Positions 5,050 to 63,666 of a stretch of 64,000 nucleotides of DNA are shown piece by piece (position 1 is the stretch's first letter; each line of letters opens with the position of its first letter). A program made the position numbers and the translations under genes. The notes under the pieces are model-generated. The model saw only the letters and a program-made list of their open reading frames with translations. It was not told where the DNA came from and searched no databases. This DNA comes from a virus (Duplodnaviria; Heunggongvirae; Uroviricota; Caudoviricetes), in the IMG/VR virus record IMGVR_UViG_2878930440_000003. One strand, written 5' to 3'.

Positions 5050-5307
5050 CTATTTCTTTCCGTAATACTTCTCTGATAAGCCGTTGAATCGCTCATAGTT
5101 CGGCAACTTGGGAGAGATTTCAAACTTCATCGTTGTAACATCATATCCTCTATCAGTCATTTCTTTGACAAACTCTTTGGTGAAGACCTTATCGAAAAGA
5201 TAATGAGCATCTGTTTGAGTCATAAACCCTAGAGGATGATAAGCACCAATGCAGTTCTCTTTCTTATCCCAATATGCCGTTAGCTTATCTTTCTTTAAAA
5301 GTCTCAT
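5050..5307 (-). CDS. hypothetical protein
   Basis: 85-aa ORF. Confidence 0.4.
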   Translation of the reverse strand: MRLLKKDKLTAYWDKKENCIGAYHPLGFMTQTDAHYLFDKVFTKEFVKEMTDRGYDVTTMKFEISPKLPNYERFNGLSEKYYGKK

Positions 5308-9615: not shown

Positions 9616-9639
9616 TCCCTCTCCCTTTTGCAGGAGAGG
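9616..9639. terminator. repeated hairpin CCCTCTCC-cttttgca-GGAGAGGG
   Basis: 8-bp stem between gene 9648..9851 (stop) and gene 9149..9601 (start). Confidence 0.45.
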
Positions 9640-9647
9640 GTGGTTAG

Positions 9648-37223: not shown

Positions 37224-38150
37224 TTAAATCAAACCTCGTTCCTTGAACTCATTCATCAATGGGGTTGCCAAGACCTCAATATCTGGATGAGGCTTTCCAG
37301 TAGTTCCTTTTGATCGCAAATCGAAGAAATGAAGCCAATCACTCACGAATGCGGTATGAATCAACTCCGTGTTGGTATCAAGAGGAAGAACAGTTCTCGC
37401 ATCTTGTGGCTTTAAACCATCATCCTTAACCAAAGACAAATACATCATTTCACATACTCTATTGGCAAACCACCATTTTTCTACCGGACTCCAATGCTCA
37501 TAACTACCGATGTTCTTTGATAGGTCAACAAATGTTCCACCATCAAAAGACGATGGATTAACCGCATCATCTTCACCAACCCACTTTGGTTTGTTGATAG
37601 CAATCTCGCCTCCGAACTTATCCTTACTATAGTTGCAATATCTAGTGCTTTGTTCCGCTACGGAATCTACACGATGTCTGTTAGCCTCTCTACTTACCGC
37701 AATCTGAGTAGTAAAGCGGACGGTTATTCGCTTCTCATGCCATTCCGTAGGCTCGCAGATATAGTCCAAATCCTCAAACCAATTATTTTCAACTATCACT
37801 CTGTAGTTGGTTGTGATATAGTAATCGTTACCTATCTGCATCACCTTTGAATATTTGTTCTCACGATAGTGCTTGACCAATAAAGACTCCGGCACAAAAA
37901 ATCCTTCTTCATAGGCTACATGGAGGTAAATCGTTCCATGCTCACACATGGCAAGATGGTTGCTGCTTACCATACGCTCAACGAAAGGCTTTGCACTGTC
38001 TTTGTCTATCTTCATACTTGACGCATAGCAAGTGCGACCGCATAACTCTATCTGCTTGTAAACTCCATCCATACCCTCACCTTGGGATAGGATTTCATAT
38101 TTTGGTTCTAATATCTTCATGTCCTTATAAGTTTTGAAATTCGACCACAA
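37224..38150 (-). CDS. thyX: flavin-dependent thymidylate synthase ThyX
   Basis: ThyX signature RHRVDSVAEQSTRY (RHR-x7-S). Confidence 0.75.
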   Translation of the reverse strand: MWSNFKTYKDMKILEPKYEILSQGEGMDGVYKQIELCGRTCYASSMKIDKDSAKPFVERMVSSNHLAMCEHGTIYLHVAYEEGFFVPESLLVKHYRENKYSKVMQIGNDYYITTNYRVIVENNWFEDLDYICEPTEWHEKRITVRFTTQIAVSREANRHRVDSVAEQSTRYCNYSKDKFGGEIAINKPKWVGEDDAVNPSSFDGGTFVDLSKNIGSYEHWSPVEKWWFANRVCEMMYLSLVKDDGLKPQDARTVLPLDTNTELIHTAFVSDWLHFFDLRSKGTTGKPHPDIEVLATPLMNEFKERGLI

Positions 38151-61557: not shown

Positions 61558-61581
61558 CCCTCTCCCTTTTACAGGAGAGGG
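61558..61581. terminator. repeated hairpin CCCTCTCC-cttttaca-GGAGAGGG
   Basis: 8-bp stem; near-identical copy at 9616-9639; ends 16 nt upstream of the ATG at 61542. Confidence 0.45.
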
Positions 61582-61592
61582 TGATTAATTAC

Positions 61593-61712
61593 TTACTCAC
61601 AAATAATAGCGAGCTGACCACAAGCAGCTCCATTCTCAATTTCAGCCTTTGTTGCGATTGCTACTGCATAATCGTAACCCATCTTTTCCAATTGATTCTT
61701 AATTGCATTCAT
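61593..61712 (-). CDS. 39-aa peptide ORF with Cys-containing C-terminus
   Basis: MNAIKNQLEKMGYDYAVAIATKAEIENGAACGQLAIICE, manually translated; overlaps the end of the methyltransferase gene by 14 nt. Confidence 0.3.
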   Translation of the reverse strand: MNAIKNQLEKMGYDYAVAIATKAEIENGAACGQLAIICE

Positions 61713-62145
61713 ACTTAGTAATCTCCTTTTCTTTAAATGATTTATAATATAATTGCTTAAAGCCTAACTTGATCAAAACATTGATGTAATCTCTATACTG
61801 TTTACTGATAAAGATTTCGTGGTTGTTGCCAACAAATCTATACCACAAATTGTCAAGAAATACATTTGTCTTGTAATGACCTTGATTGCAGTCAATGATA
61901 ACCAGCTTTCCACCTACCTTCAGATACTTCTTCAAGGTTGTGAAGGTTCTCTGTAAGTCTGGGATATGATGAACAACGTTTCTTAGATAGAATACATCTA
62001 CTGATTTTTCTCTTAGTCCGACAATCTCATCTTTTCCATCATACAGGAAGTCCAATTGTGGAAGGGTTGTTACATCGCAAGTTTTATATCCAGTCTTTGG
62101 ATTATAGCCACTCCCGAAATCAATGCACAATTTTGTCATCATCAA
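61699..62145 (-). CDS. class I SAM-dependent methyltransferase (small)
   Basis: Motif I CIDFGSGYN, VFYLRNVVHHIPD, KVGGKLVIID. Confidence 0.55.
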   Translation of the reverse strand: MMMTKLCIDFGSGYNPKTGYKTCDVTTLPQLDFLYDGKDEIVGLREKSVDVFYLRNVVHHIPDLQRTFTTLKKYLKVGGKLVIIDCNQGHYKTNVFLDNLWYRFVGNNHEIFISKQYRDYINVLIKLGFKQLYYKSFKEKEITKYECN

Positions 62146-62887
62146 TATGATTGTTTCTTCTTACAAGTTCATTGTTCTTAACGGCCTTGCAGTACTTTTC
62201 CCAATCGCAGAAATTTCCAAGAGGAGTTACGATAATATCACTTCGGTTGTACTTCCCATAATTGCCAAATACTCCAAATGTATGACCATTCCACTTGTAA
62301 TCGTAAAATCCATACCCGTCATCGCCAACCTTTACAGAACCTTTTGGGAGTCTTATCTCACCATATCTAGCCTGTAAATCTTCACAAACAATGCTATAGA
62401 AGCCATCTTCCAGTATTGTTTCCAACAATTGTGGATTCAAGCTTTCCTTACACTTAGGAATGTTTATTCTTGTGTTTGGAATAATCTCTTTACACTGAAG
62501 TGCCATGTCTCTACGTCTTTCGTACTGCTCGATAGAAGACACACTGATAGCAACCTCAGTTAATCCAGCATCTTTCAATGCTACGATGATGTCCTCATTA
62601 AGCAGTATTCCATTTGTAACAAGACAAATACCATCTGACGTATAGTTGCTGACTATCTTTACAATCTTTACCAATTCTGGGTTAAGTAAACTCTCACCAC
62701 CCATGATAGTTGCTCTTTTCAGAACACCAACCTTCTTCAAAGTTTCCTCCATCTTATCACAATCCAGTCGCAATGGTGACTTAAACTTTTGGTAGCAGAA
62801 GTAACAATTTCCGTTTACTCCTGTACTTTCGTTCATGTTGCAATTCAGATTTGTGATAATTCTATATCTGAAAATACCCTTTTTCAT
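62120..62887 (-). CDS. radical SAM protein with non-canonical Cx11CxxC cluster motif
   Basis: NLNCNMNESTGVNGNCYFCY (three Cys spaced 11 and 2) and the glycine-rich SAM motif ATIMGGESLLNPE. Confidence 0.5.
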   Translation of the reverse strand: MKKGIFRYRIITNLNCNMNESTGVNGNCYFCYQKFKSPLRLDCDKMEETLKKVGVLKRATIMGGESLLNPELVKIVKIVSNYTSDGICLVTNGILLNEDIIVALKDAGLTEVAISVSSIEQYERRRDMALQCKEIIPNTRINIPKCKESLNPQLLETILEDGFYSIVCEDLQARYGEIRLPKGSVKVGDDGYGFYDYKWNGHTFGVFGNYGKYNRSDIIVTPLGNFCDWEKYCKAVKNNELVRRNNHIDDDKIVH

Positions 62888-63666
62888 ACTAAATTAATTC
62901 CTTCTACAACACCATTGCCGAGGTGATTTTTCTCTGATATGTTATTCACATTAATAGGAGACAACTTCACGAAGAAATGCTCCTTATCAAACCATTTTTT
63001 CAGCTTTTCTGCATCAAAATCAGAAGTGTCAACAAGTGTAAGATTGATTGTAGTCTTCAGATTGCTTTCTGTGCGAATCTGTCCCAACTCCTTAATTGTC
63101 ATTTTGTTCTTATAAGGAATCAACCAATTTCGCTTGTCATCATCAAATGAATGCAAACTAATCTGCAATGTGATATTTCCATTAATGAAAGAGAAATCAC
63201 TACCCTTAATACCAATCGTTGATACATAATGATGAGTATTAGGATATTTCTCCGTAATAATACGAATAGCCTCTTTGACTGCATCAATATTAAGAAATGG
63301 CTCGCCCATACGAGTATAGTTAACTTTAAACTCTTTTGCTTTGCTTGGGTCAGCACCTGCCTTATTGACGGCAAATTCAACCTGCTCTACAATTTCTTCT
63401 GCCGTAAGATTGCGATAACGTTTCATGTTGCCTGTAGCGCAAAATTTGCATCTTACTGGACACCCACTCATTGTAGATACTCCAATCATCCAACGTTCTG
63501 TACGGTCGCCAAGCTCATTGTTATCAAGCTTGTTTTGATGTCTGCCTATTGCATCTTTGGTGTAATAAGGTAAGAACGTGTCTGTAGTTTCAACTAGAAA
63601 GCCATCTTCTAATTGAAGGCAATACACGACACCATTTTTAAATGTTTTCTTTCTTAATTCCTTCAT
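62884..63666 (-). CDS. radical SAM protein, RlmN/Cfr-like
   Basis: GCPVRCKFCATG (compare RlmN GCxxxCKFCsT) and RMGEPFLN (compare RlmN MGMGEPLLN). At 260 aa it is shorter than RlmN. Confidence 0.55.
   Translation of the reverse strand: MKELRKKTFKNGVVYCLQLEDGFLVETTDTFLPYYTKDAIGRHQNKLDNNELGDRTERWMIGVSTMSGCPVRCKFCATGNMKRYRNLTAEEIVEQVEFAVNKAGADPSKAKEFKVNYTRMGEPFLNIDAVKEAIRIITEKYPNTHHYVSTIGIKGSDFSFINGNITLQISLHSFDDDKRNWLIPYKNKMTIKELGQIRTESNLKTTINLTLVDTSDFDAEKLKKWFDKEHFFVKLSPINVNNISEKNHLGNGVVEGINLV

Follow-up and report, generated by a model that had tools for sequence, protein, structure and literature searches.

RlmN and Cfr are class A radical S-adenosylmethionine (SAM) methylases, which act on C2 or C8 of A2503 in 23S ribosomal RNA and on C2 of A37 in transfer RNA (tRNA). 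They are the paradigm for methylating unactivated sp2 carbons, and their mechanism uses two Cys residues of one polypeptide. Cfr is also a clinically important resistance enzyme. In this study, we analyzed a four-gene cassette in a stretch of 64,000 nucleotides (nt) of viral DNA from the Caudoviricetes (IMG/VR record IMGVR_UViG_2878930440_000003); the whole stretch is referred to as the window. The locus very likely encodes a two-piece class A (RlmN/Cfr-type) radical SAM methylase, made up of a 260-amino acid (aa) core and a Cys-bearing 39-aa peptide, together with two accessory SAM enzymes. A full-text literature search found no description of a split or phage RlmN-type enzyme. In the described enzymes, Cys355 of RlmN or Cys338 of Cfr takes the methyl group from SAM and sits on a flexible C-terminal loop (PMC3702613). 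The covalent enzyme-RNA crosslink is resolved through a disulfide by a second Cys, Cys118 of RlmN or Cys105 of Cfr (PMC4689488).

An initial annotation of this DNA, made from the letters alone, had described three overlapping open reading frames (ORFs) for SAM-using enzymes, a 39-aa Cys-containing ORF that overlaps the last of them, and a hairpin behind it. All of these were found in the sequence, and the coordinates and translations of the four minus-strand ORFs were confirmed:

62884..63666, minus strand: rSAM1, 260 aa; core of the probable split RlmN/Cfr-type (class A) radical SAM methylase
62120..62887, minus strand: rSAM2, 255 aa; accessory radical SAM enzyme with a predicted MoaA/twitch-like fold
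61699..62145, minus strand: small methyltransferase, 148 aa; minimal class-I SAM-dependent methyltransferase, second accessory gene
61593..61712, minus strand: tail peptide, 39 aa; predicted detached C-terminal helix-strand-loop of the RlmN/Cfr fold
61558..61581, no strand assigned: GC-rich hairpin just past the stop codon of the tail-peptide gene; the operon probably ends here (3' end)

The rSAM1 and rSAM2 genes overlap by 4 nt (ATGA). The overlap of rSAM2 with the methyltransferase gene is 26 nt when counted from a TTG start, or 20-23 nt from two ATGs just inside, and that of the methyltransferase and tail-peptide genes is 14 nt. A Shine-Dalgarno (SD)-like AAGGAG motif lies 10 nt upstream of the tail-peptide ATG. 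The tail-peptide gene is located 1.2 kb from the rSAM1 core gene, and the rSAM2 and methyltransferase genes stand in between.

The RlmN/Cfr-type core and the 39-aa tail peptide

rSAM1 carries the cluster signature GCPVRCKFCATG together with RMGEPFLN, and its cluster Cys residues are C69, C73, and C76. It was assigned to the Radical_SAM family in a Pfam scan. The best NCBIfam models were those of RlmN and Cfr, and they matched the core region only. TIGR00048 (RlmN) gave 81 bits against a cut-off of 290 and covered profile positions 102-287 of 355, and the CfrAB model gave 55.9 bits against a cut-off of 530. All phmmer matches of rSAM1 in the PDB were RlmN or Cfr, with RlmN 6fz6 at E 9e-16. The AlphaFold2 (AF2) model of rSAM1 had a predicted local distance difference test score (pLDDT) of 83, and its only significant Foldseek matches in the PDB were the RlmN-family structure 6fz6 (E 9e-9; query TM-score (TMq) 0.60) and Cfr 9p0p. 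The radical SAM core, the CX3CX2C motif in RlmN/Cfr sequence context, and the fold were all present. About the first 85 residues of E. coli RlmN were unmatched in a MAFFT alignment; rSAM1 thus lacks the RNA-binding domain at the N-terminus, and its own chain also ends without the Cys tail. These results agree with the earlier description of the protein as RlmN/Cfr-like but too short. Longer rSAM1 homologs were considered as tail fusions and rejected, as they carry N-terminal extensions or mis-called starts instead. One 601-aa homolog (P0340) has an apparent intein at the cluster motif, where CPVRCAFC is followed by unrelated sequence, and it matches intein-containing radical SAM models.

The counterpart of the C-terminal Cys tail was found on the 39-aa ORF. 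Cys31 of the tail peptide lies within AACGQL, and the same AACGQL surrounds the methyl-carrying Cys355 of E. coli RlmN. When rSAM1 and the peptide were concatenated, phmmer gave one collinear alignment with RlmN 6fz6, which spanned residues 117-356 of 366 and ended in AACGQL. MAFFT placed M1 of the peptide at about residue 327 of E. coli RlmN and C31 on C355. In hhalign, a profile of ten tail peptides matched a profile of 16 single-chain RlmN-type proteins over E. coli residues 329-362 (E 1.6e-5, probability 79%). Several tail products of 40-45 aa are independently labelled 'adenine C2-methylase RlmN' by the pipeline of the Joint Genome Institute (JGI). The motif G[YF]D..VA[IV]AT..E[IV]...AACGQ[LVM] is common to the small ORFs of other phages and the window peptide, and the peptide is conserved end to end across distant phages. 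Of the two Cys residues in the window peptide only one is conserved, the second (IICE) being absent from the conserved pattern. Purifying selection on the tail is strong: the ratio of nonsynonymous to synonymous polymorphism (pN/pS) is 0.13 at pS = 0.75 for the core of the peptide in 65 distinct sequences. Since selection is this strong and homologous small ORFs are present at 78 of 80 related loci (see below), the 39-aa ORF is a real gene. The alignments indicate that it encodes the detached catalytic tail of the adjoining RlmN/Cfr-type methylase and not a natural-product precursor, as had been proposed. The initial annotation had also held that a full-length alignment of rSAM1 with ordinary RlmN, including the conserved methyl-carrying Cys, would speak against its view. 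As regards the Cys this does apply, but in trans: the residue and its AACGQL context align with C355/C338 on the separate 39-aa chain.

The tail was also found in covalent arrangements. It is fused to the C-terminus of the core in Stenotrophomonas phage ANB28 (XMQ95057, 319 aa) and in P0401, and to the N-terminus, as a circular permutation, in P0343 and P0365. In the 695-aa P0365, a single chain comprises the tail, the core, and another radical SAM domain; this second domain was considered as an rSAM2 ortholog and set aside, with only weak similarity (E 0.003). At locus L092 (7741..8289), the small methyltransferase continues in frame at its C-terminus into the tail. The whole tail is tandemly duplicated within one ORF in Vibrio phage D479 (L007, 4734..5081), P0219, and P0220. 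P0221 and P0222 show partial tail duplication, and the duplicated part in P0222 is the EAGAACGQLSII Cys loop. These covalent variants link the predicted tail to the enzyme.

The second catalytic Cys was missing from the core. Gly62 of rSAM1 aligned with C118 of E. coli RlmN in MAFFT, and this position was Gly in all seven split members aligned. Among 79 full-length representatives of the wider family, Gly was present in 23, and 22 of these have no tail on the same chain; the other one, P0343, carries its tail at the N-terminus. A further 21 of the 79 combine Cys at the 118 position with a fused tail, and in 16 a fused tail goes with Ile or Thr at this position. Outside the cluster, the aligned homologs showed no other conserved Cys in the core or the tail. 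In a separate clade of RlmN-like proteins of about 300 aa (P0399, P0412, P0415, P0421, P0435, P0440, and others), Ile occupies the Cys118 position and the fused tail contains 'SNCGQ', and members of another clade (about 270 aa, '[RW]KIGVSL.SGC..GC.YCFT') carry no tail on their own chain. The resolving Cys has therefore been lost outside the split form as well. In two defining features as well as in the curated score, rSAM1 falls outside RlmN/Cfr sensu stricto. The catalytic architecture of the split enzyme is clearly of the RlmN/Cfr type.

Distribution and co-inheritance

Homologs of rSAM1 were found by tblastn in Kehishuvirus tikkala (crAss-like; 69% identity), Moorella phage MTATph1 (44%), Vibrio phage D479 (40%), Pectobacterium phages Arno18 and Wc4 (36-38%), and a Yersinia phage. 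In all four phages examined for it (Kehishuvirus, Moorella, Pectobacterium, and Vibrio), the core was followed by a small tail ORF within a few hundred bases. The tail lay directly 3' of the core in three of them, and in Arno18 a 92-aa ORF intervenes. Locus counts in IMG/VR refer to the 80 closest of roughly 500 loci. The tail ORF accompanied the rSAM1 homolog in 78 of these: 40 loci had the four-gene form, 38 had the core directly followed by the tail, one had a deletion, and one was rearranged. The check proposed earlier, whether related cassettes keep a small Cys ORF downstream, thus came out positive. The earlier view that the three SAM enzymes and the conserved small Cys ORF form one unit is right. 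The two-gene loci include phages whose core is 92-93% identical to that of four-gene phages. Since 38 of the 80 loci consist of core and tail alone, the pair of rSAM2 and methyltransferase is optional and dispensable for the split enzyme. Clustering at 90% identity gave at least 2716 clusters for the tail, searched with a profile led by a 43-aa homolog, and at least 2220 for the core. Much of the split-enzyme family comes from gut phages. These results show that the two-piece RlmN-type design is common in phages.

The rSAM2 family is small (98 clusters). At every rSAM2 locus examined, the core and a small-methyltransferase homolog were in the same cluster, and so was the tail wherever the locus was intact; the exceptions are cut or rearranged loci such as L111, L155, L156/L012, L159, L164, and L167. 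The usual order is core-rSAM2-methyltransferase-tail. The tail is upstream of the core in L091 and L158, and spacers are present in L165 and L166. At L012 (the same locus as L156), from about position 5268 onward, rSAM2 ends after about 163 residues and the methyltransferase and tail are gone, with a core 98% identical to that of the window.

The window matched IMG/VR contig 2871875081_000002 at 100%, and the cassette was 98% identical to a Segatella copri HF1825 contig. A crAss-like identity of the window phage was considered and rejected; its tape-measure protein has 2324 aa, its major head protein is of the HK97 type, and its nearest host record is Segatella copri. A search for a close phage genome carrying the cassette returned only the 52-nt hairpin stretch by megablast against INPHARED, and tblastn with rSAM2 gave no match. 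The four-gene form also occurs on contigs of metagenome-assembled genomes (MAGs) labelled Clostridia, Bacilli, or Tenericutes, where the neighbors are bacterial housekeeping genes, and stand-alone four-gene clusters were seen on contigs with such neighbors. The earlier assignment of the cassette to a Bacteroidetes phage thus holds for the host, and a restriction to phages of Bacteroidota does not.

Accessory enzymes and genomic context

rSAM2 matched Pfam Radical_SAM with 49.7 bits and contains the motifs C16-x11-C28-x2-C31 and IMGGESLLNPE. C16, C28, C31, and the GGE motif (G63-G64-E65) were invariant in an alignment of 30 homologs, and so were C88, C168, and C233. The expanded cluster loop noted earlier is thus a genuine cluster motif. 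The spacing within the cluster differed by clade, with Cx3C in the most distant of the 30 homologs, Cx5C in intermediate ones, and Cx11C in the clade of the window. Because the distant members have Cx3C, the Cx11CxxC motif of rSAM2 is, as judged from the alignment, a canonical CX3CX2C motif with a lineage-specific 8-residue loop insertion that is recent within the family.

Models of MoaA, viperin, and SPASM-type enzymes matched only the N-terminal half of rSAM2, far under their cut-offs; those of MoaA and viperin covered residues 9-124 (47 bits against cut-offs of 231-325). The AF2 model had a pLDDT of 90.8, and its best fold in the PDB was MoaA (TMq 0.63-0.64, root-mean-square deviation 7-8 A, 17% identity), followed by twitch/SPASM enzymes and viperin-like enzymes. 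The likeness to this group thus consists of matches in the N-terminal half and a whole-length fold nearest to MoaA. Unlike MoaA, with which it shares about 17% identity at scores far under the cut-offs, rSAM2 has the 8-residue insertion in its cluster loop and lacks the C-terminal CX2CX13C motif, in place of which it has the three dispersed invariant Cys residues. Membership of rSAM2 in a defence system was considered and rejected; PADLOC gave only a generic pVip match to the N-terminal half. Some QueE variants have a Cx14CxxC motif, in which many residues separate the first cluster Cys from the second, and QueE-type 7-deazaguanine chemistry had been suggested for rSAM2. The long insertion is the only likeness to these enzymes. 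The best QueE model was TIGR03963 (E 0.007, 16 bits against a cut-off of 260), the cut-offs of the other QueE models being at least 260, and no QueE was among the top 50 fold matches of the rSAM2 model. The suggestion is not supported by these results.

The small methyltransferase scored 29.6 bits with Methyltransf_11 (cut-off 21.2) and was also over the Pfam cut-off for Methyltransf_23. Its glycine-rich motif I is DFGSG, and it matched phrog_5399 with E 4e-27. The phrog_5399 methyltransferases of Bacillus (Herelleviridae) phages are of the same minimal size and are 35-41% identical over the full 148 aa. In contrast to the window gene, they are solitary among small early genes, with no annotated radical SAM partner within 3.5 kb. 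Solitary homologs were found in 86 phage records, mostly of Bacillus phages. One of them, in Bacillus phage Nate (L177, 5922..7363), lies about 2 kb from PnuC-like and nicotinamide mononucleotide (NMN)-adenylyltransferase genes, a weak NAD (nicotinamide adenine dinucleotide)-related neighborhood.

The gene neighborhoods of the split enzyme were diverse. Its two-gene form is present in a lambdoid prophage early region beside ERF, NinB, NinG, and SSB genes; in Kehishuvirus and the Moorella phage the split enzyme is near helicase and recombinase genes; and the ANB28 and Arno18 homologs are in or near tRNA clusters. Two diverged bacterial lineages (L089/L090/L102, for example L102 6109..15116, and L103) have the gene string PncA-PncB-Nudix-[cassette]-NadE-NadK-NMNAT-CinA-NrtR, and in phage contig L004 (2731..7272) the cassette is directly downstream of Nudix and NAMPT genes. 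A link of the cassette to adenine-nucleotide metabolism is possible. Immediately upstream of the split enzyme, Kehishuvirus tikkala (L001, 3455..5001) has genes for an SPFH/band-7 protein and for a hydrophobic protein of 108 aa that is probably a membrane protein. The RlmN-like gene itself is annotated 'prohibitin family protein' in phages of Stenotrophomonas and Xanthomonas (hits H10 and H13).

The hairpin after the 39-aa ORF, which the initial annotation had pointed out, is real, with a 10-bp stem, a free energy of -19 kcal/mol, and z = -4.2, and it lacks a U-tract on the coding strand. This GC-rich hairpin (CCCTCTCC-loop-GGAGAGGG) occurs twice in the window, at 9617..9640 and 61558..61581, where the expected number was 0, and 52 nt around the second copy are 94% identical in the unrelated faecal phage contig MT835597. 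Among 21 other lineages, about 11 have a strong hairpin 3' of the tail gene, and these hairpins differ in sequence. The repeated hairpin may be a repeated terminator or a mobile hairpin element.

Two further features of the window were noted:

30541..30976, minus strand: tRNA cluster, Lys(UUU), Tyr(GUA), Gln(UUG), and Glu(UUC)
28862..29797 and 37224..38150: amidoligase-family protein (phrog_2443) and partial thymidylate-synthase-family match (phrog_85), respectively

In the window, ARAGORN also reported a tRNA-like gene at 30616..30690 with a 4-base anticodon, 'atgc'. Since the phrog_2443 and phrog_85 proteins resemble phage thymidine-hypermodification enzymes, the phage DNA may contain a modified base independently of the cassette.

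Mechanism, alternatives, and comparison with described enzymes

The homology, the split, the missing Cys and N-terminal domain, the co-inheritance, and the purifying selection are shown by the results above. How the two pieces dock, what chemistry they carry out, on which substrate, and what the accessory pair does are inferred by analogy, as follows. The 260-aa protein would be the catalytic barrel with the [4Fe-4S]/SAM site, and the 39-aa tail would supply Cys31, the methyl acceptor by homology with RlmN/Cfr. The tail would dock onto the core, and cluster-bound SAM would S-methylate Cys31. Cleavage of a second SAM would then give a 5'-deoxyadenosyl radical that takes H from the S-methyl group, and the resulting methylene radical would attack the target at an sp2 carbon, which by analogy would be C2 or C8 of adenine. 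According to the accepted mechanism, the absence of a thiol at position 118 would give a methylene-bridged adduct without intramolecular disulfide resolution (PMC4689488). Because there is no counterpart of Cys118, the release route would have to differ from that of RlmN; a second tail peptide, another thiol, or a route shared with the fused Ile/Thr clades might release the adduct, or it might not be released. RNA, at just short of an even chance, is the leading candidate substrate, and DNA and a nucleotide each appear a good deal less probable. Nucleic-acid modification, one of the functions suggested earlier, is a reasonable proposal for a core of the RlmN/Cfr type. The strict co-occurrence of the accessory pair with the core and the methyltransferase-tail fusion suggest that rSAM2 and the methyltransferase elaborate the same target, or that they charge or process the tail.

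Several points weigh against this scheme. The curated RlmN/Cfr thresholds, which are set at equivalog level, were missed by far (81 against 290 bits). Because Cys118 and the N-terminal domain are absent, canonical methylation of RNA to C2- or C8-methyladenosine (m2A/m8A) by rSAM1 is not to be assumed. The proposed homology of the tail rests on concordant lines that are individually modest, the profile-profile probability being only 79%, and the peptide profile alone retrieved no RlmN chain from the PDB at E <= 10. The methyltransferase family also occurs without any radical SAM partner. The substrate hints from genomic context conflict, as tRNA clusters, recombination/replication genes, and NAD salvage genes are all represented.

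That the 39-aa ORF is the precursor of a RiPP (a peptide synthesized by the ribosome and then modified post-translationally), with a leader and a Cys core matured by two radical SAM enzymes and the methyltransferase, was suggested by its place as a small ORF ending an operon of tailoring-type enzymes. Both radical SAM proteins also gave weak NCBIfam matches to peptide maturases, all far under their cut-offs. However, the peptide appears to be homologous to an enzyme segment, occurs fused to the enzyme at either end, and is conserved over its whole length across distant phages, with one conserved Cys only and no variable core. Most loci consist of core and peptide only. Neither Pfam nor NCBIfam showed a SPASM or RRE domain in the two radical SAM proteins, the maturase models matching the generic core only, and no protease, transporter/exporter, or immunity genes turned up in the annotated or called neighborhoods examined. 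The RiPP proposal is therefore rejected as very improbable and largely refuted. Even less credible, and almost certainly wrong, is a decayed RlmN-like gene that was broken by the insertion of two genes and left as a non-functional fragment. The two genes between core and tail in the window would fit such decay, as would the relative L012/L156, which lost part of rSAM2, the methyltransferase, and the tail. Decay is contradicted by the age and wide spread of the split, which is seen in thousands of clusters from unrelated groups of phages and from bacteria, and by the tail, which retains a start codon and an SD-like motif of its own and shows strong purifying selection.

The missing resolving Cys also allows the 39-aa peptide to be seen as a consumable and not a subunit. 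It would then be left covalently on the target nucleic acid or nucleotide as Cys-S-CH2-base, as a natural counterpart of the trapped intermediate of RlmN C118A, and rSAM2 and the methyltransferase might process the adduct. Gly at the Cys118 position in all split members examined is consistent with this, given that crosslink resolution requires a second Cys (PMC4689488), and so are the location of the catalytic Cys on a free, cheap peptide encoded at the operon end and the tandem duplications of the whole peptide or of the Cys loop alone. Relatives without Cys118 that have a fused tail are nevertheless common (Ile or Thr in 16 representatives), self-crosslinking of a whole enzyme seems unlikely for them, and these relatives therefore argue for a Cys118-independent release route. 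The fused and permuted variants look like ordinary enzymes; we regard the consumable peptide, with its putative adduct, as improbable. There is a slightly better, still small, chance of a free-peptide crosslinking or carrier form of RlmN, which would either covalently tag adenine in host or phage RNA or DNA, or in a nucleotide such as NAD, via Cys-S-CH2 or serve as a recyclable, diffusible one-carbon carrier, with rSAM2 and the methyltransferase processing the adduct or recharging the carrier. If true, it would represent a new mode of radical SAM chemistry and a new phage-made modification of a nucleic acid or cofactor. Another proposal is that the cassette acts on an adenine nucleotide (NAD, ADP-ribose, ATP, or cyclic oligoadenylate) and not on RNA or DNA, perhaps in a contest over NAD-depleting immunity. 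It draws on the NAD-salvage string in two diverged bacterial lineages (L102 and L103), the Nudix and NAMPT genes right before the cassette in phage L004, a CTP_transf_like and NUDIX (NMNAT/Nudix-type) gene a few kb upstream in another contig, and a NadE-like gene about 2 kb downstream in L158 and L159. The lack of the N-terminal RNA-binding domain would also fit, and MoaA and viperin, the nearest folds of rSAM2, act on nucleoside triphosphates. By contrast, the NAD-salvage proteins of L089 and L004 had no tblastn match in the window, its close relatives, or most cassette loci, and other chromosomal copies lie beside unrelated housekeeping genes. Phage auxiliary genes are often grouped without functional linkage, and the characterized members of the RlmN/Cfr fold all act on RNA. 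We therefore consider a nucleotide-directed cassette of this kind unlikely, more so than the consumable peptide.

The two-piece methylase with two accessory SAM enzymes is thus the explanation that we favor. An abundant family would place the first catalytic Cys on a separate mini-protein and dispense with the second, which raises the questions of how the covalent intermediate is resolved, what the phage gains, and whether the target is RNA, DNA, or a nucleotide. The finding would account for thousands of unannotated 39-46-aa ORFs and is a caution against labelling such ORFs RiPP precursors. The split system is small (260 + 39 aa) and directly amenable to in vitro work.

Compared with RlmN and Cfr, the split enzyme shares the core fold, the GCxxxCxFCATG cluster motif, MGEP, and the predicted C-terminal helix-strand-loop with the AACGQL Cys at the Cys355/Cys338 position. 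It differs in that the tail is a separate 39-aa chain, Cys118/105 is replaced by Gly, and the N-terminal domain is gone; it is also mainly phage-encoded, and in some loci another radical SAM enzyme and a methyltransferase are encoded with it. The ANB28-type single-chain RlmN-like proteins, which are about 31-34% identical to rSAM1, are likewise phage-encoded and without the RlmN N-terminal domain. Unlike rSAM1, the ANB28 protein has both catalytic Cys residues ('VICCSTQSGC' and a fused 'GGGCGQLW' tail), and its gene is within a tRNA cluster. The laboratory C118A/S mutants of RlmN (PDB 4pl1, 5hr6/5hr7), which read 'ATLAVSSQVGC' in the phmmer alignment and trap the covalent protein-RNA intermediate, share with the split enzyme the lack of a thiol at position 118. 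In the split enzyme, by contrast, the loss of this Cys is natural, conserved in a large family, and joined with a detachable Cys carrier.

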